From NCBI GenBank assembly GCA_041639695.1, contig JBEQBQ010000021.1, positions 1-16,448 on the forward strand: a DNA stretch of 16,448 nt, written 5' to 3'. The DNA comes from Candidatus Nanohaloarchaea archaeon (lineage in GTDB: Archaea; Nanohalarchaeota; Nanosalinia; Nanosalinales; Nanosalinaceae). Positions 6,215 to 16,430 of the stretch are shown here, one piece after another. Numbering within the stretch: position 1 is the first letter of the stretch; every line of letters starts with the position of its first letter. The notes under the pieces were generated by a model. The model saw only the letters and a list, made by a program, of their open reading frames with translations. It did not search any database and was not told where the DNA came from. Position numbers and translations under genes: made by a program.

Positions 6215-6790
6215 TTATTCACTGAACTGACCTAGGAACTGAAGTAATGCGCCTACTGTGCGGTCTTCCTGAACCTCCCCATCAAGGCACATTTCCTTTA
6301 CTTCATCAAAGCTATACCAGTCGGCTTCTATACTTTCCCCTAGTTCAGTATCTTGTTCAACTTTTTCGAAGTCCTCAACTATGAAGTAGTACAGATCCCA
6401 TTCAACTGTGGCTCCGGAATGGTTTTTCTTGAACAGTTTAACCTCACTAGGTTTTATGCCTGCTTCTTCGACAGCTTCGGTCCTCGCTGCCTCTCGAGCT
6501 TTAGGAACAATTTGCTTCCCTCTTTCGAGGAAACTATTGTAGTTTTCTAGCGAATCAAACACTTTGCCGCCCGGCAACCTTATATCCCGATCTCCTATTT
6601 CATGTCGGTATTCATCAGTCAAAAGCATTCTTTCATTTTCAACTATGATCAGCCTGGTGCCTGGCGCTCTCCTCGCTATTTCAAACGTAGTTCTATTTTC
6701 TCCTATCTTCATCGGCTGTCTGATGATTTCAACTATATCTCCTTGAGCAAAGATTTCCTCATCGCCATCAGACTGCGGTATTTTGGACAT
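6215..6790 (-). CDS. Nudix hydrolase, ADP-ribose pyrophosphatase-like
   Basis: LLTDEYRHEIG..IRLPGGKV...AARTEAVEEAGI (Nudix box with an insertion), and ELGESIEADWYSFDEV..M..DGEVQED C-terminus typical of NudF-like enzymes. Confidence 0.8.
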   Translation of the reverse strand: MSKIPQSDGDEEIFAQGDIVEIIRQPMKIGENRTTFEIARRAPGTRLIIVENERMLLTDEYRHEIGDRDIRLPGGKVFDSLENYNSFLERGKQIVPKAREAARTEAVEEAGIKPSEVKLFKKNHSGATVEWDLYYFIVEDFEKVEQDTELGESIEADWYSFDEVKEMCLDGEVQEDRTVGALLQFLGQFSE

Positions 6791-8935: not shown

Positions 8936-9553
8936 CTACACTCTCTTGTTCAAGTTTTCTAAGGAGTCAGGCGCAGCAACCATCCAAGAATCATCATCTC
9001 TCATTACTGCCCCGTATTCAGCGCCGTGATCTGCCAGTATCTTACCCATCTTACCATATTTTTCGCCCTCTCCCTCTAATCTTTCAGTATAAAAACTTCC
9101 ATCGTATTCGACGGTTCCCCAAGGGCAGGGATCTCCTATCTGGAAATGATAGCTGACTGCAAGGTCTTCTGCAGCTTGCTGCGAAAAATTACCTGAACCG
9201 AAGACCGAACCACCTGCATAGACCACCCCTAAACTTTCATCCAGGTCGTCATAAATCTCAGTAAACCGTTCTACCGGAACGTCTATCGAAACTTCTATTT
9301 CGGTGTCGAAAACTTCGGTGTTTCCGTTTCCTTTAGCGTGCAGCCTAAATTGAAGAGTTTCAAGATTTTGTAACATTTCCAGCTGCTCAGGGAAAGAATT
9401 TTCGCCTATCTTAGACATTCTTGCTTCAGGCACACGAATATTTATACAGTCTATCGCTTTTCTCGGCTTCATGCCTTCTTCCTGCATATGAGCATTCAGT
9501 TCTTCATACGCAGAGCTCAACGCATCCTCTTCCCGGAATTCGACGAATGTCAT
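8936..9553 (-). CDS. Hypothetical protein, paralogue of 7809..8438
   Basis: Acidic 205-aa ORF (EIEVSIDVPVERF..LDESLGV; DGSFYT); TTTAAA box at 9580-9585. Confidence 0.75.
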   Translation of the reverse strand: MTFVEFREEDALSSAYEELNAHMQEEGMKPRKAIDCINIRVPEARMSKIGENSFPEQLEMLQNLETLQFRLHAKGNGNTEVFDTEIEVSIDVPVERFTEIYDDLDESLGVVYAGGSVFGSGNFSQQAAEDLAVSYHFQIGDPCPWGTVEYDGSFYTERLEGEGEKYGKMGKILADHGAEYGAVMRDDDSWMVAAPDSLENLNKRV

Positions 9554-9591
9554 TTCCTTCAGAGTTTTAGCGCTTAAACTTTAAACCTGTT

Positions 9592-10221
9592 TCAGATAAG
9601 TCCCTGAGTTTGAATCTTTTGTCTAACTTCTTCAAATATAATTTCATGGCCTTCATCCTCGGGATGAATTCCGTCCTCAACTTTTTCCAGCCATTCTTCT
9701 CGGTCGAAACTTCTCAAGTCAATACGTGGAACGTTTTCTTCTTCGCAGACTCGTTTTTGGATTTCCATGTATTCTTGTAGAAGTTCTTCGCTTGAATCGA
9801 CTCCTTCGACCCAAGGAATACTTCCCTCTATCGAGGTATACGGCTCTCCAACTATGACAATTTTTCCGTAATCTCGTGCTTTCTCAATTAGTTTTCGTAG
9901 ATTCTCTCTATAATTTTCTTCTGGAACTCTGATTCCCTGTCGTTCCTCCAGATAATTGCTTTCTTCGTGGATTAACTGAATGTCGTTAGTCCCTACCTGT
10001 ATTAAGATAGTCGCATCCTCTTCAGGCCAGTAACGTCTCTCAAGCTCTTCTTCAAATCTTCTAACAAGCTGCTCCGAGTCTTCACCTGAGATCCCAAGAT
10101 TGTAGAGGCTGTGATCATCGTGGTTCTTCAAAAGATGTCTTCTGAGTCTTTCGGTCCAGCCGCCTTCGTTATCTTTACTTCCGTGAGTGATTGAATGGCC
10201 GAAGCAGAACAACTGTGTCAT
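9592..10221 (-). CDS. SGNH/GDSL hydrolase
   Basis: Block I FGHSITHG, block II NLGISG, block III GTND, block V DGIHP. Confidence 0.92.
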   Translation of the reverse strand: MTQLFCFGHSITHGSKDNEGGWTERLRRHLLKNHDDHSLYNLGISGEDSEQLVRRFEEELERRYWPEEDATILIQVGTNDIQLIHEESNYLEERQGIRVPEENYRENLRKLIEKARDYGKIVIVGEPYTSIEGSIPWVEGVDSSEELLQEYMEIQKRVCEEENVPRIDLRSFDREEWLEKVEDGIHPEDEGHEIIFEEVRQKIQTQGLI

Positions 10222-10841
10222 AAAAACTGTTCTATTTCCGGTTCTAGCTTATTGTAGATTTTTCTATGCCCTTCAGTGTCGGGGTGTAGATCGTCTACTA
10301 AGTGTTCTCCAAAATCTTCTTCCAGCATTTCAGGAAGCATAAAAGTAGGAACGTTTTCCGACTTGCAGACTTCTTTTGCTACGCTGAGATATTCCTGTCT
10401 ATCCTGTTTGAGAATTGATTCGTTTTCCGACCATGGAAGCGGATCCAGTTTTTCATAGTTCGGAGGGACTCCCCCTACGTAGACAACGTTTTCAGCATAA
10501 ACCTTTGATATTTCTATTATCCTTTCCAGGTTCTCCCTGAACTCGTTTAGAGGTACTTTGTTCCTGTCCTCTTCGTTGAAGTAAAGTGCGTCGTTTCCGC
10601 CTATACTGATTATAATTAAATATTCTTTTTCTGGTTTGTACCGTGCTTCGATCTCGTTTCCTATCCGTTTTACTAAGTCTCTGCTGGTGTCTCCTGAGTG
10701 AGAAAGGTTGTATAGCTGGTGGTTCTCGTTGTTTTTGAGTGATCTGCTGTGTAGGTCTTTTGCGAGGTAATGTGCCCAGCCGCCTTCCGGATCCCAGAAA
10801 CCTGCGGTAATGCTGGCACCGAAGACAAGAACTCTTGTCAT
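10218..10841 (-). CDS. SGNH/GDSL hydrolase
   Basis: Block I FGASITAG, block II NLSHSG, block III GGND, block V DDLHP; ATGA overlap with the next SGNH gene. Confidence 0.92.
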   Translation of the reverse strand: MTRVLVFGASITAGFWDPEGGWAHYLAKDLHSRSLKNNENHQLYNLSHSGDTSRDLVKRIGNEIEARYKPEKEYLIIISIGGNDALYFNEEDRNKVPLNEFRENLERIIEISKVYAENVVYVGGVPPNYEKLDPLPWSENESILKQDRQEYLSVAKEVCKSENVPTFMLPEMLEEDFGEHLVDDLHPDTEGHRKIYNKLEPEIEQFL

Positions 10842-13747: not shown

Positions 13748-14449
13748 TTAAAGTATCTCGACAATCTCGCCCAGTTCTCTTCCTTTACAGTAAAGCTTCG
13801 CCGGTCTATGAGAAACACCTTCAGTCTTCTCGCCGGTATCTTCGACAATATCTTTCTTCTTTAGTTTCCGCCTGAAGTTCCTGCGATCAAACTCTTTATC
13901 GAACACGGTTTCGTAAACTTCTTGGAAATCGGATAAAGTGAATTTTTCGGGTAGGAAAGAGTAAGCAGCTGTAGAGTACTCCATTTTAGCCCTCAAACGT
14001 TCAATTGAGTAGTCTGCGATCTCGCTGTGATCGAAAGCTAGCTCAGGCAATTCGTAGGCAGAATACCATTCAACGTTTTCCAGTTCGTCTACATCTCGAA
14101 CTTCTTCGTAGTTGACAAGTGCGTAGTATCCGACTGTTATGACCCTGGTTCTAGGATCTCTTTCAGGTTGTCCGAAGGTGTATAATTGTTCGAGGTAGAC
14201 GTCGTCCAAACCGGTTTTCTCGTGTAAGGTTCTTTTCGCCGCTTCTTCCAGCGACTCATCCATCTCAATAAAGCTGCCGGGTAGCGCCCATTTTCCTTCG
14301 TCCGGCCATGAATCTCTCTTCTTCAATAAAAGCTTGAGGTCGTTGTCCTTGACCGTGAAGATTATGAGATCTACCGTCACTGAAGGTCTGTCGAAAGCTT
14401 CCTCATCGTACTCTTTGAGGCTGTCGAACTCGGGTTTTTCCTGCGTCAC
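13748..14449 (-). CDS. nrtR: NrtR-family Nudix-related transcriptional regulator
   Basis: SVTVDLIIF, WALPG, degenerate Nudix box (KRTLHEKTGL), YLEQLYTFG.PERDPR.RVI, LAFDH, and wHTH FTLSDFQEVYE...DRRNFRRKL...HRPAKLY; GTG start. Confidence 0.93.
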   Translation of the reverse strand: MTQEKPEFDSLKEYDEEAFDRPSVTVDLIIFTVKDNDLKLLLKKRDSWPDEGKWALPGSFIEMDESLEEAAKRTLHEKTGLDDVYLEQLYTFGQPERDPRTRVITVGYYALVNYEEVRDVDELENVEWYSAYELPELAFDHSEIADYSIERLRAKMEYSTAAYSFLPEKFTLSDFQEVYETVFDKEFDRRNFRRKLKKKDIVEDTGEKTEGVSHRPAKLYCKGRELGEIVEIL

Positions 14450-14453
14450 AGTC

Positions 14454-14474
14454 TTTGTGTAAGAAGTACAAGAA
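14454..14474. promoter_or_regulatory. Putative NrtR operator upstream of nrtR
   Basis: tttgtGTaagaagtACaagaa: GT-N7-AC core lying between TTTAAA (14475-14480) and the start codon at 14449. Confidence 0.75.
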
Positions 14475-14475
14475 T

Positions 14476-15165
14476 TTAAAGAGCACGGGCATGGTAGCCC
14501 CTGCCCTCCAGGGAGTCTTCTACATCGTAGGTGTCGACAAGTTCGACTCCATCATCCTGCCATTTCTGCTTGGTTTTTTCTGCGGCTTCCGGATCGATAC
14601 CTCTCATCGCGTCTTCGACCGCGTAAACCTTCACATCTCTTTCCAGCAAGCCCTGGGCCGCCTGGTCGTTACAGACCTCGGTCGCCACACCGTAGACAAA
14701 GGCAATATCCGGATCAACCTCCTCAACCACAGGATCTGCGTGTGGAGTACCTTCAAACACGTTAAATTTATCCTTGTAGAGCACAATCTCTCTGGGATCG
14801 TCCTCAAGTCTTTCCTCCACATCGTAATCTACGTTCCATTCGAACTTCAGCGGATTAGCGGGCTCGGTTGCACTGATGAATTCGGCGCCTCTCGTGTTCT
14901 GCATGCAGTGAGGCGGGAACGTCTGTTCAAAGTCCGGTTCTTCATCGTAGACGATCTCTTCAGATTCCTGGTTGTGCCAGTCAGCGGTATTGATGGTTGT
15001 GATGCCGTATTCTTCAGCTAGATCGGTTAGTTTTCCAAGGTTGGTGTGGATTCCTGTCGCTCCGTTTCCTTCGTTGACCGGAAGCTTTCCCGCAGGATCT
15101 ATGAAGTCGTACTGGGTGTCGACGTTCCAGAAAACGACGTTGTAGGGTTCAAACCAGTTACCCAT
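14476..15165 (-). CDS. pncA: Nicotinamidase (isochorismatase/cysteine hydrolase family)
   Basis: VDTQYDF (Asp), TADWH and FPPHC (metal ligands), KDKFNVF (Lys), GVATEVC (Cys); adjacent to pncB and nrtR. Confidence 0.9.
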   Translation of the reverse strand: MGNWFEPYNVVFWNVDTQYDFIDPAGKLPVNEGNGATGIHTNLGKLTDLAEEYGITTINTADWHNQESEEIVYDEEPDFEQTFPPHCMQNTRGAEFISATEPANPLKFEWNVDYDVEERLEDDPREIVLYKDKFNVFEGTPHADPVVEEVDPDIAFVYGVATEVCNDQAAQGLLERDVKVYAVEDAMRGIDPEAAEKTKQKWQDDGVELVDTYDVEDSLEGRGYHARAL

Positions 15166-15167
15166 TT

Positions 15168-16340
15168 CTAGACCACCTGCACCATGTTCTCCTGCCTGTA
15201 ATCATCGATTTCGGCGGGGTCTTGCTCTCTCCCTACTTTTGCAACAGGCTCTCCTTCTATCATGTAGATGTCTGAGGTCGCGTGCATGTTCTCTGAGTTG
15301 TTGAAGCTTCCTGCACCAACCATGTCGAACATGGTGTAGCCTTCTTCTTCCTCGAATCTTTTCTGGGCTCCTGCAAACTGTCTTGCTTTAGCCACGTCGC
15401 CCATGCCGCTTGAAATAGCTAGGTCAACGTTTTCCCGGTAACCAGCATCTATGAGTTCTCTTGCCAGTCCTTCGACTGCATCGATACTCATTCCTTTACC
15501 GGTCTGGTGGCCATCGTATCTTCTAACCTCTTCAGCTGTTTCTGCGTAGTTCTCTCCGCACGTATCCATTCTAGCCACTAGCTCGAAGTCCTCGCCGTGC
15601 TCAGCTTCCATATACTCACAGACTTCAAGCAAGTCAGTTGCTTCTCTGTTCGCTGTGTCGATCAGTACCGGCGTCGTTCCTTCGGTGTATTCGTCCATGG
15701 CCTTTGCGGCTTCGAGGGTTGCGTTCTCCATTCCGTGTTTCCAGGCGAATGGAAGTACGAATGCGTGGGGCATAGTTCCCGCTGGCTCTTTTCCATGTGT
15801 TTCTGCTCCGGCCCTTGTTGAGTAGTTGACTGCTCCGTTTTCTATGGCTGCTTCTGCGAGCTCTTCCTGTTGAGCAGGATGGTAGTGTCTTGCTCCGAAA
15901 TCAGCAAGAGGAACACCTACTTCTCCAAATATGTCAGCTATCTCTCCTACTGCTTCGCCGTATTTCTGTGGATCAGGATGTTCGAGACCGTTTGCTTCAG
16001 TTAAGTGGTGTGAGACGATCCCTAAGTTTAGGGTTTCGGGCTCCAGCAGTTGTTGTGCCGGACCTTCAAGAACCATCAACGGTTCCTTTGCTTCGAACGT
16101 TTCGTTCGTATTGATGTAAATATCAATATCTTCTGTCATTTCGTCAACGATATCTGCGGCTTCTTCGAGTCCTGCTGTCTCGGCCTCTCCTTCGGGTCTT
16201 GCGAACACTTTCTTCGCTACTCTCGGGTTGAACGATCTGTGTTCTAGGGCCTTGGTTGTGTCTGTGAAGTAGATGTCTGTTCGGTCTGTCAGGTTTTCTG
16301 GCGGGTTGTTCTCGAATTCGTGTGTTTTCGTGGTTTGCAA
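15168..16340 (-). CDS. pncB: Nicotinate phosphoribosyltransferase (archaeal/Thermoplasma-like type)
   Basis: TDIYF, DFGARHYHP, GTMPH, LIDT, RMDT, ISSG, DIYMIEGEPVAKVGR; start reassigned to TTG at 16340, 5 nt after an AGGTGA Shine-Dalgarno. Confidence 0.87.
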   Translation of the reverse strand: MQTTKTHEFENNPPENLTDRTDIYFTDTTKALEHRSFNPRVAKKVFARPEGEAETAGLEEAADIVDEMTEDIDIYINTNETFEAKEPLMVLEGPAQQLLEPETLNLGIVSHHLTEANGLEHPDPQKYGEAVGEIADIFGEVGVPLADFGARHYHPAQQEELAEAAIENGAVNYSTRAGAETHGKEPAGTMPHAFVLPFAWKHGMENATLEAAKAMDEYTEGTTPVLIDTANREATDLLEVCEYMEAEHGEDFELVARMDTCGENYAETAEEVRRYDGHQTGKGMSIDAVEGLARELIDAGYRENVDLAISSGMGDVAKARQFAGAQKRFEEEEGYTMFDMVGAGSFNNSENMHATSDIYMIEGEPVAKVGREQDPAEIDDYRQENMVQVV

Positions 16341-16350
16341 CTTGATCACC

Positions 16351-16371
16351 TTTTTGTAAAGATTACAATAA
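16351..16371. promoter_or_regulatory. Putative NrtR operator 1 of pncB
   Basis: tttttGTaaagattACaataa: palindromic GT-N7-AC core abutting the Shine-Dalgarno. Confidence 0.75.
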
Positions 16372-16374
16372 GTC

Positions 16375-16395
16375 TTTGTGTAGAAAACACACATA
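16375..16395. promoter_or_regulatory. Putative NrtR operator 2 of pncB
   Basis: tttgtGTagaaaacACacata: GT-N7-AC core just downstream (minus sense) of the TATA box. Confidence 0.75.
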
Positions 16396-16398
16396 GAA

Positions 16399-16405
16399 TT
16401 TTAAA
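16399..16405 (-). promoter_or_regulatory. TATA box of the pncB-pncA operon
   Basis: Minus strand AAAAAGGTA-TTTAAAA, a purine-rich BRE-like tract followed by a TATA box. Confidence 0.65.
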
Positions 16406-16409
16406 TACC

Positions 16410-16430
16410 TTTTTGTTTTTTCTACAAGAA
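16410..16430. promoter_or_regulatory. Putative NrtR operator 3 of pncB
   Basis: tttttGTtttttctACaagaa: GT-N7-AC core overlapping the BRE-like tract upstream of the TATA box. Confidence 0.65.

Follow-up and report, generated by a model that had tools for sequence, protein, structure and literature searches.

We describe a nanohaloarchaeal locus which, as read from its sequence and that of its relatives, very likely encodes an autoregulated NrtR repressor covering the region from BRE/TATA to the start in archaeal promoters. The window (the whole stretch of DNA analysed, 16,448 nucleotides of contig JBEQBQ010000021.1) comes from a genome of 971 kb that is 89% complete (G000). The sequence-only reading had proposed a DPANN archaeon with a reduced genome, and the source is indeed a nanohaloarchaeon of about 1 Mb; close homologues of its NrtR carry DPANN labels in public records. 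The module would correspond to the bacterial 'salvage I' kind of NrtR regulon, with autoregulation, set on archaeal promoters: an NrtR dimer, with a Nudix-like sensor and a winged helix, would bind four 21-bp palindromes and keep TFB and RNA polymerase off the pncB-pncA and nrtR promoters, until an ADP-ribose-type ligand, signalling that NAD is being broken down, frees the DNA of NrtR and so switches on nicotinamidase and phosphoribosyltransferase. We infer binding, repression, the effector, transcription start sites and flux onward to NAD. The features of the locus are as follows.

13748..14449, minus strand: nrtR, 233 aa, starting at GTG; Nudix-like effector domain followed by the NrtR winged helix
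14454..14474, no strand: putative operator O1, TTTGTGTAAGAAGTACAAGAA, centre 14464, GT-N7-AC; 22.4 bits
14475..14480, minus strand: putative nrtR TATA hexamer TTTAAA, 31 nt upstream of the GTG
14476..15165, minus strand: pncA, predicted nicotinamidase, 229 aa, isochorismatase fold
15168..16340, minus strand: pncB-like type II phosphoribosyltransferase, 390 aa, TTG start at 16340, first gene of the operon
16344..16350, minus strand: Shine-Dalgarno GGTGATC of pncB, by sequence reading
16351..16371, no strand: putative operator O2, TTTTTGTAAAGATTACAATAA, centre 16361, GT-N7-AC; 19.7 bits
16375..16395, no strand: putative operator O3, TTTGTGTAGAAAACACACATA, centre 16385, GT-N7-AC; 16.6 bits
16399..16407, minus strand: putative pncB-pncA TATA box, TATTTAAAA (minus strand), by sequence reading
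16410..16430, no strand: putative operator O4, TTTTTGTTTTTTCTACAAGAA, centre 16420, GT-N7-AC; 20.8 bits

The pncB-like gene, pncA and nrtR had been described as co-oriented; all three lie on the minus strand of the window (13748–16340), and each has family matches. The gap between the pncB stop codon and the pncA start is 2 nt. Gene calls were made with a crude ORF scorer, and both kinds of start, of translation and of transcription, are predicted. The longest ORF would begin pncB at ATG 16394 and take in two operator sites; we prefer the TTG at 16340, which is the likely start, behind the Shine-Dalgarno GGTGATC. SD-like words in this genome have their maximum at –14 to –11 from start codons, and alignments of pncB orthologues begin at residues 1–8. 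With the start at TTG 16340, and not with the longest ORF, all four sites are non-coding, as the earlier reading had it.

The coordinates of the four 21-bp sites proved exact, and the sites share the palindrome form TTnkTGT-N7-ACAmnAA. Their GT-N7-AC core had been recognised as that of NrtR operators, and it matches the definition of Rodionov 2008, which describes a 21-bp palindrome with this core (PMC2330246). The four sites are far beyond chance. With an independent matrix made of 16 sites from the relatives G018, G019, G030, G031 and G035, window sites left out, O1–O4 have the bit scores listed above and take ranks 1–4 among the 970,600 positions of this genome, and the next-best match (15.0 bits) lies within a coding region; the leave-one-out genome-wide ranks of the four sites are 4, 5, 10 and 4. 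The pattern TTNNTGTN7ACANNAA, with at most one mismatch, occurs 6 times in the window against 0.71 expected, a number reached in none of 200 shuffles, and its only matches without mismatch in the 971-kb genome (three) all fall within this locus. The single-mismatch matches at 9418 and 11431 of the window were rejected, being without the core or inside a coding region. No other regulon members were found in this genome, where the best remaining matrix matches fall in coding regions; one site in a tRNA/agmatinase-like gene interval (C27:4668, 11.4–15.9 bits) is without TATA geometry and was treated as a chance match.

In an archaeal promoter the TATA-like box lies some 30 nt upstream of the transcription start; in a leaderless gene the latter coincides with the start codon. 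Across 882 genes of this genome, TATA-like hexamers peak at –30/–29 from start codons (142 in the 2-nt bin versus about 5–24 off-peak), and the nrtR box at –31, which overlaps the pncA stop codon (14476–14478), agrees with this leaderless-type spacing. O1 occupies the 25-nt interval from that box to the leaderless GTG. At the pncB-pncA promoter, O4 ends 2 nt upstream of the TATA box and covers the expected BRE position, O3 fills the interval between the box and the predicted transcription start, and O2 lies in the putative 5′ leader immediately upstream of the Shine-Dalgarno; the transcription start is placed near 16374–16375 because of the genome-wide TATA spacing. The promoters had been called archaeal, and the sites do abut TATA boxes at the leaderless spacing typical of the genome. 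Operators between TATA box and transcription start imply a block of RNA polymerase or of TFB recruitment. MDR1, LrpA, Phr and TrmB are archaeal repressors that act over or just downstream of BRE/TATA, and they share with the present operators the position from TATA box to transcription start; to our knowledge, their protein families are unrelated to NrtR and none of them senses NAD turnover.

The arrangement recurs in all seven relatives looked at closely, with sites kept upstream of orthologues in all others examined, as the sequence-only reading would have it. At nrtR promoters the order is TATA box, site, leaderless start, with the same geometry in 7/7 genomes; at pncB promoters it is site, TATA box, site, site, Shine-Dalgarno, start, with G019 and G041 as exceptions. 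All orthologous pncB promoters examined keep the O2-position site and a TATA-like box at the equivalent place, five of the six others have the O3-position site (degenerate in G019), and the pncB promoter of G041 has two sites, not three. O1 differs between G000 and its relative G002 only at two central spacer positions. In six related loci (5–14 kb), no matrix match above 9 bits falls anywhere but upstream of pncB or nrtR. Of 41 relatives, 7 have a full-length NrtR, and these are also the ones with the pncB-like gene. In ten genomes with NrtR the strict motif occurs 28 times, 23 times at module promoters; in five near-complete genomes without NrtR it is rare, with 2 matches.

Extra ORFs without a family match are present in the operons of G018 (203 aa) and G019 (153 aa); they are 36% identical mutually and absent from G000. 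Several further 'ORFs' in related operons resemble antisense artefacts.

The enzymes under this putative control are PncA and the pncB-like protein. PncA matches Pfam isochorismatase (4.2e-15), and its closest solved structure is the Pyrococcus horikoshii pyrazinamidase/nicotinamidase 1ilw (6e-14). Nicotinamidases have catalytic Asp/Lys/Cys and metal-binding Asp/His/His. The motifs VDxQxDF, DWH, PxHC and GVATExC align between PncA and 1ilw, and Asp10, Asp52, His54, His71 and the GVATExC cysteine of 1ilw are identical in PncA, with Lys94 not cleanly aligned (insertion); against NCBIfam NF008623 PncA scores 34 bits (cut-off 174). The pncB-like protein matches Pfam QRPTase_N (8.6e-09), has no Pfam NAPRTase match and fails to reach the cut-off of any NAPRTase model, the best being NF006415 (3.9e-33, 114.7 bits, cut-off 243); its closest solved structures are 2i14 (6.6e-10) and 1ytd (4e-4). 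The route onward to NAD, for which the earlier reading had looked to nadM and nadE, held up in one part: a NadM-like gene is present, and NadE was not found, by profile and tblastn, in G000 (89% complete), G002 (99%) or the single-contig G018 and G019. Salvage to NAD therefore cannot be closed with recognised enzymes. Matches to PF02540 were rejected as NadE, being only PP-loop N-terminal matches with a CysD/PAPS-reductase-like protein as the best, and tblastn with two NadE proteins gave no match.

There is thus an appreciable, if minor, chance that no nicotinamide-to-NAD salvage takes place here, and that the pncB-like enzyme has another substrate (nicotinamide to NMN), that nicotinate/NaMN has another fate, or that the module is decaying after NadE loss. 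The NadM-like protein could take NMN directly, and the pncB frame of G018 has an in-frame TAA, which together with the NadE result and the low NAPRTase scores would suit such a reading; against it stand the identity of PncB (92–93%) and PncA (84%) between G000 and G002, both with intact frames, and the nicotinamidase motifs kept in PncA. NadE is moreover present in G030, G031 and G035, with one G031 copy inside the module, and pncA coupled to pncB makes up the classic Preiss-Handler pair (Table 1 of PMC2330246).

[quoted passage not shown] The NCBIfam NrtR equivalog NF050029, a model narrow in scope, gives 182.9 bits, below its cut-off of 400. A 94% identical NrtR is encoded in another Candidatus Nanohaloarchaea archaeon genome (L055). 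Among solved structures the closest is Bacteroides thetaiotaomicron AraR (5bs6, 8e-47, residues 25–220), compared with 3.4e-40 for Shewanella oneidensis NrtR (3gz5) and 1.9e-18 over residues 138–220 for NadQ (7q91). The recognition helix reads DRRNFRRK in the window NrtR and DKRNFRKR in AraR. Among the AraR residues that read GTGT (PMC4666351), Arg180, Asn181 and Arg205 are identical here, and Lys179 and Lys184 are replaced by Arg.

ADP-ribose is reported to suppress NrtR binding in vitro (PMC2330246), and six residues contact it in Shewanella NrtR (3gz5/3gz8): Tyr10, Phe15, Arg41, Asn43, Lys76 and Arg98 (PMC4666351). The aligned residues of the window NrtR are Tyr14, Phe19, Arg45, Ser47, Lys78 and Arg100, so that five of six are kept and Asn43 has become Ser47. 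We consider it unlikely that regulator and operators are as described and the effector is not ADP-ribose, being instead a different nucleotide related to NAD, or a sugar, as for members of the AraR type. The closer match to AraR than to Shewanella NrtR and the change at the phosphate-contact residue Asn43 would point that way, as would the recruitment of the NrtR family to other pathways described by the 2008 study (PMC2330246); the cleft of AraR, however, is filled by Asn8, Phe36, Leu67 and Gly89, in whose place the window NrtR has Phe19, Ser47, Lys78 and Arg100 (PMC4666351); at three of the four, Asn8, Leu67 and Gly89, its residues (Phe, Lys and Arg) are those of NrtR. Unlike AraR, which targets arabinose genes, the window NrtR has its sites at NAD genes, and the locus contains no genes for sugar utilisation. 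Neither the SIR2 family, which would be a maker of ADP-ribose, nor NAD_kinase_C was found in five genomes; with SIR2 not found, it is not evident from where within the cell ADP-ribose and nicotinamide would come, which also bears on the effector.

NrtR would act as a repressor in the reading that we favour. A partly activating NrtR, with the site on the BRE/TATA side recruiting basal factors and only the downstream sites repressing, is improbable. Some archaeal factors do activate from an upstream position adjacent to BRE/TATA. Of the seven other pncB promoters inspected, six have the upstream (O4-position) site directly next to the TATA box (G002, G018, G019, G030, G031 and G035), and in G031 a single site at the O4-type position precedes a Nudix hydrolase gene; yet G041 has no upstream site, the nrtR promoter has the downstream site only, and characterised NrtRs are described as repressors (PMC2330246, PMC6800001). 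Finally, that the palindromes serve another factor or a structural role and the Nudix-wHTH protein is merely an enzyme, as the label of NUDIX hydrolase given to it in public records would suggest, or that the contig is bacterial contamination, is highly improbable: the motif tracks NrtR across genomes and across domains, the Nudix signature is degenerate (RTLHEK versus the published REUXEE, PMC2330246), two other members of the family, with single-contig genomes of ~1 Mb, have the same module, and its promoters obey this genome's own TATA spacing.

An autoregulated NrtR repressor on archaeal promoters can be compared with several known systems. Operons of pncA, pncB and nrtR are common among the NrtR regulons of Table 1 in PMC2330246, and the 'salvage I' regulons given there include those of Blastopirellula (pncB-nrtR-pncA), Roseiflexus (nrtR-pncA; pncB) and Clostridium thermocellum (nrtR; pncA-pncB). 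The window module resembles them in its Nudix-like and wHTH domains, degenerate Nudix signature, 21-bp GT-N7-AC palindrome, pncA and pncB as targets and a site upstream of its own regulator gene. Unlike them, it belongs to an archaeon, its operators are set by TATA box, BRE position and leaderless start instead of a sigma-70 promoter, three of them bracket one TATA box, and NadE was not found in the lineage. MsNrtR of Mycobacterium smegmatis, an auto-repressor of NAD synthesis, likewise places autoregulation and NAD supply under one Nudix-related factor, whereas it controls the de novo pathway and is reported to be under acetylation control (eLife 2019, PMC6800001). NadQ, NiaR and NadR also control NAD genes, and NadQ shares the C-terminal winged-helix domain, but they have other sensor domains and operators; the NadR operator is given as TGTTTA-N6-TAAACA.

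Although the NrtR circuit is well known in bacteria, we found no description of it in archaea, and no published account of NrtR in DPANN, in the main texts of the freely accessible papers searched. All 62 of the 62 proteins in the 2008 NrtR tree are bacterial (PMC2330246); papers on NrtR and archaea, among the matches listed, treat bacteria or note Sulfolobus as being without such a protein. PncAB has been noted for a cultivated nanohaloarchaeon in one paper, which does not mention Nudix. Transcription control in DPANN is almost unexplored, and the locus offers, from comparative evidence, a regulator together with its operator and target genes and a probable ligand; it is a test case for the working of a bacterial-type sensor-repressor at the TBP/TFB promoters of a symbiont with a reduced genome. 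That NadE was not found points to an uncharacterised step in the NAD supply of some nanohaloarchaea, which bears on uptake from hosts.

NrtR homologues form a clade that extends across DPANN, and the window NrtR is one of its members. Retrieval of related loci gave bacterial loci in 78 of 80 cases, and the DPANN loci were reached via a separate genome search; NrtR_WHD is present in 10/70 genomes of this phylum and in 44/301 of a second DPANN phylum. In the latter, GT-N7-AC stands 14–22 nt before the predicted nrtR start at 18 of 31 loci, mostly right after a TATA-like box, and recognisable NAD genes adjoin nrtR in 5/31 (flanks of ±1.5 kb for 30 loci and 4 kb for L056, with the cluster nadE ... 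nadM-nrtR). Many 'NUDIX hydrolase' entries in DPANN genomes are probably regulators. More speculatively, and with lower confidence, NrtR may be no stray bacterial gene in this archaeon, and the clade may be old and span several DPANN lineages with the operator wedged between TATA box and leaderless start; in nanohaloarchaea lacking NadE, a PncA/PncB-like pair without a recognised route to NAD might then reflect an undescribed amidation, a changed phosphoribosyltransferase specificity, or exchange of pyridine intermediates with the haloarchaeal host, gated by NrtR on NAD breakdown. In bacteria, too, the archaeal matrix picks up sites: 27 of 76 loci have a match exceeding 12 bits in roughly the 200 nt that precede nrtR.

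The genome G000 comprises 971 kb in 38 contigs and is 89% complete; the window is its entire contig C21 (16,448 bp). The co-oriented pncB, pncA and nrtR genes recognised in the sequence-only reading were borne out as a head-to-tail trio at the right end of the window, and direct reading placed the four palindromes described with them at exactly the positions claimed. These and other features of the window are as follows.

Features of the window
likely start TTG 16340, preceded by GGTGATC (longest open reading frame from ATG 16394), minus strand: pncB-like type II phosphoribosyltransferase gene
15165-14476, minus strand: pncA, starting 2 nt past the pncB stop; isochorismatase fold (Pfam)
14449-13748, minus strand: nrtR; NUDIX and NrtR_WHD (Pfam)
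14454-14474, 16351-16371, 16375-16395 and 16410-16430: predicted NrtR operators O1, O2, O3 and O4
16407-16399, minus strand: pncB TATA box TATTTAAAA
14480-14475, minus strand: nrtR TATA hexamer, first base at -31 from the start, overlapping the pncA stop codon
13165-13746, plus strand: peptidase C39-like/Guanylate_cyc_2 protein gene, convergent with nrtR
9592-10841, minus strand: two tandem GDSL lipase-like genes
6215-6790, minus strand: second Nudix protein gene, weakly NudE/NudK-like

The pncB-like product has a QRPTase_N match in Pfam. NCBIfam agrees on all three identities, each with a score below the curated cut-off (NrtR, 183 versus 400; nicotinamidase, 34 versus 174; NAPRTase, 115 versus 243). 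The best solved relatives of NrtR are Bacteroides thetaiotaomicron AraR (8e-47) and Shewanella NrtR (3.4e-40), and that of PncA is the Pyrococcus horikoshii nicotinamidase (6e-14), with which the aspartate, metal-ligand and cysteine motifs align. The best solved relatives of the pncB-like product are the NAPRTase-like enzymes of P. furiosus and T. acidophilum, both weak matches.

The consensus of the four sites is TTnkTGT-N7-ACAmnAA. Allowing at most one mismatch, the window contains six matches against 0.71 expected, a number reached in none of 200 shuffles; without mismatch there are three in the whole genome, all inside the module formed by the three genes and their operator-bearing promoters. 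A leave-one-out weight matrix ranked the four sites 4, 5, 10 and 4 genome-wide. In the strongest chance test, an independent matrix, for which five other genomes supplied 16 sites (G000 and its congener G002 excluded), placed them at ranks 1-4 among 970,600 positions, the next-best match (15.0 bits) being within a coding region. The four sites thus lie beyond chance, and no similar motif density was seen in unrelated intergenic regions, the outcome that would have spoken against the sequence-only reading. The best intergenic match outside the module (C27:4668-4688, or 769-789 of extracted locus L053; 11.4-15.9 bits) has a tRNA on one side and an agmatinase-like gene on the other; without the TATA geometry, it is probably a chance match.

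Upstream of the 882 predicted genes of G000, the first base of TATA-like hexamers shows a sharp maximum at 30-29 nt from the start codon (142 hexamers in the 2-nt peak bin versus roughly 5-24 per off-peak bin). Many genes are therefore leaderless; a second class shows a peak of Shine-Dalgarno-like words at -14 to -11. O1 occupies the whole space between the nrtR TATA hexamer and the start codon. Because of the overlap of this hexamer with the end of pncA, two routes to nrtR transcription are open: its own promoter and read-through from pncB. Applied to TATTTAAAA, the genome-wide TATA spacing would put the pncB transcription start near 16374-16375, with O3 at about -21 to -1 and O2 at about +4 to +24. 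O4 lies upstream of the TATA box at a distance of 2 nt, in the position expected of a BRE. In G002 (locus L021, 8497-8576), a divergent tRNA-Arg(TCG) gene lies ~90 nt past the outermost operator. Given this neighbour, and with the G000 contig ending just short of it, O4 serves no divergent protein gene.

Of 41 related genomes, seven yielded a full-length NrtR (G000, G002, G018, G019, G030, G031 and G035), and exactly these seven encode the pncB-like protein. Matrix matches above 9 bits in six related loci (5-14 kb) all lie directly upstream of nrtR or pncB, so the motif is kept at the promoters of orthologues, the conservation on which the original proposal depended. All seven nrtR promoters share one layout: TATA box, 0-2 nt gap, one site, 2-4 nt gap, start codon. 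At pncB the order is site, TATA box, site, site, Shine-Dalgarno, start in G000, G002, G018, G030, G031 and G035; the middle site is degenerate in G019 and the upstream site is missing in G041. O1 and its G002 counterpart differ solely at two central-spacer positions. The strict pattern has 28 matches in ten NrtR-positive genomes, 23 of them at module promoters, against two in five near-complete NrtR-negative genomes, none at module promoters. The reversed control pattern gave five matches in the positive set and seven in the negative; one NrtR-positive genome (G061, 75% complete) has no strict match.

Several relatives carry additions. In G031 (contig C2; L054 2242-2262), a 23.5-bit operator, marking a fifth type of target, stands directly 5′ of a TATA box that serves a leaderless Nudix hydrolase gene, with ~25 nt to its ATG; the REAxEE box is intact, and the product may be an NrtR-controlled ADP-ribose pyrophosphatase. 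G030 has a weak NAD-kinase-like gene directly upstream of nrtR (L024 3684-4676), its pncB being on a separate contig with its own three-site promoter. The operons of G019 (L022 5772-6233, 153 aa) and G018 (L023 7677-8288, 203 aa) encode extra acidic proteins, 36% identical to each other, which gave no family match and no homologue in G000.

The Nudix signature, published as GX5EX7REUXEEXGU in PMC2330246, is degenerate in the window NrtR, with RTLHEK in place of REUXEE. It is likewise degenerate in Shewanella NrtR and AraR, and this fits a non-catalytic sensor. PMC4666351 names the residues that contact ADP-ribose in Shewanella NrtR and what stands in their place in AraR, an arabinose sensor; the window residues were read from two alignments, with Shewanella NrtR and with BtAraR.

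ADP-ribose contact residues (Shewanella NrtR; window NrtR; BtAraR)
Contact 1: Tyr10; Tyr14; Tyr5
Contact 2: Phe15; Phe19; Asn8
Contact 3: Arg41; Arg45; Arg34
Contact 4: Asn43; Ser47; Phe36
Contact 5: Lys76; Lys78; Leu67
Contact 6: Arg98; Arg100; Gly89

Five of the six contacts are kept in the alignment, and the window NrtR is thus predicted to retain a nucleotide-sugar pocket. Among the AraR residues named in PMC4666351 as contacting GTGT in DNA, Arg180, Asn181 and Arg205 are identical in the window NrtR, Lys179 and Lys184 are replaced by Arg, and Lys204 by His; this set agrees with the kTGT half-site.

In the nearest bacterial relatives, 27 of 76 loci have a match to the archaeal matrix above 12 bits in the ~200 nt that precede nrtR, mostly as TTAGTGT-N7-ACACTAA. 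Judged by these matches, the motif goes with NrtR in Archaea and Bacteria alike. Within this phylum, NrtR_WHD was detected in 10 of 70 genomes; none of four archaeal control genomes has it, and it is present in 44 of 301 sampled genomes of a second DPANN phylum. From the latter we inspected 31 loci (the 30 best-scoring and L056), with start codons picked independently of the motif. In 18 of them the predicted nrtR start is preceded by GT-N7-AC at a distance of 14-22 nt, in most cases directly after a TATA-like box; the motif is further upstream in four and absent from nine. A recognisable NAD gene adjoins nrtR in five of the 31 (flanks of ±1.5 kb for 30 loci and 4 kb for L056). The gene row of L056 reads nadE, nucleoside hydrolase, Nudix gene, unknown gene, nadM, nrtR.

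Close NrtR homologues are labelled Nanohaloarchaea, Aenigmatarchaeota, Woesearchaeota and Nanoarchaeota, followed by bacterial proteins at 46-59% identity; an NrtR from a Candidatus Nanohaloarchaea archaeon (L055) is 94% identical. A midpoint-rooted FastTree of 152 rows included the window protein, proteins of six relatives, 79 related loci, 11 labelled homologues and 48 unlabelled ones among P0002-P0060, those among P0061-P0120 being left out. All nanohaloarchaeal rows form one 46-row clade (support 97) whose sister is an Aenigmatarchaeota-labelled row; both fall inside a 68-row clade (support 99) that contains further rows with DPANN labels and none labelled as a bacterium. Three longer proteins with DPANN labels were placed outside it. 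This topology, from a quick tree unrooted but for the midpoint, favours an old acquisition of NrtR, which would then have been inherited and in part lost among DPANN. Ten homologues (P0028, P0041, P0062, P0070, P0077, P0090, P0092, P0099, P0103 and P0108), some DPANN-labelled and some unlabelled, are 380-408 aa long, and an extra NUDIX_4 match in several indicates that fused forms exist.

Operons of pncA, pncB and nrtR with sites before pncB and nrtR are described for many bacteria in Rodionov 2008 (PMC2330246), where all 62 proteins are bacterial. The window locus resembles those regulons in factor, operator type, targets and apparent autoregulation, and this comparison of sequences supports well its assignment as an NrtR regulon of known type. 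It differs in its archaeal host and in predicted operators set on TATA/BRE/leaderless promoters. Searches that did not extend to supplements or subscription journals found no literature joining NrtR with DPANN and, among the listed papers on NrtR and archaea, no description of an archaeal NrtR; PncAB was reported in a cultivated nanohaloarchaeon with no regulator mentioned (PMC10266531). What is new here is the host domain, the operator placement on such promoters, and the spread across DPANN.

The search for nadM and nadE, also suggested by the sequence-only reading, succeeded for the former only. A NadM-like adenylyltransferase is encoded on contig C17 of G000 (NF002243, 1.2e-26). NadE was not found with PF02540 at 1e-10 in G000, G002 (99% complete), single-contig G018 or G019, nor by tblastn of G000 with two NadE proteins. 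PF02540 matches at 0.01 cover the PP-loop N-terminal part only, the best being CysD/PAPS-reductase-like, and were rejected. The route nicotinamide-nicotinate-NaMN-NaAD is thus left without a recognised last step in this lineage. G030, G031 and G035 do have NadE, one G031 copy being inside the module. No SIR2 gene was found in five genomes searched; that nicotinamide and ADP-ribose come from the host is a guess. The four genomes G000, G002, G018 and G019 have pncA, the pncB-like gene and the NadM-like gene though NadE was not found. G018 pncB (L023 ~9380-9640) contains an in-frame TAA at codon 41 from a Shine-Dalgarno-preceded ATG, at a conserved position that is Tyr in G000, and may be a pseudogene or reflect a sequencing error.
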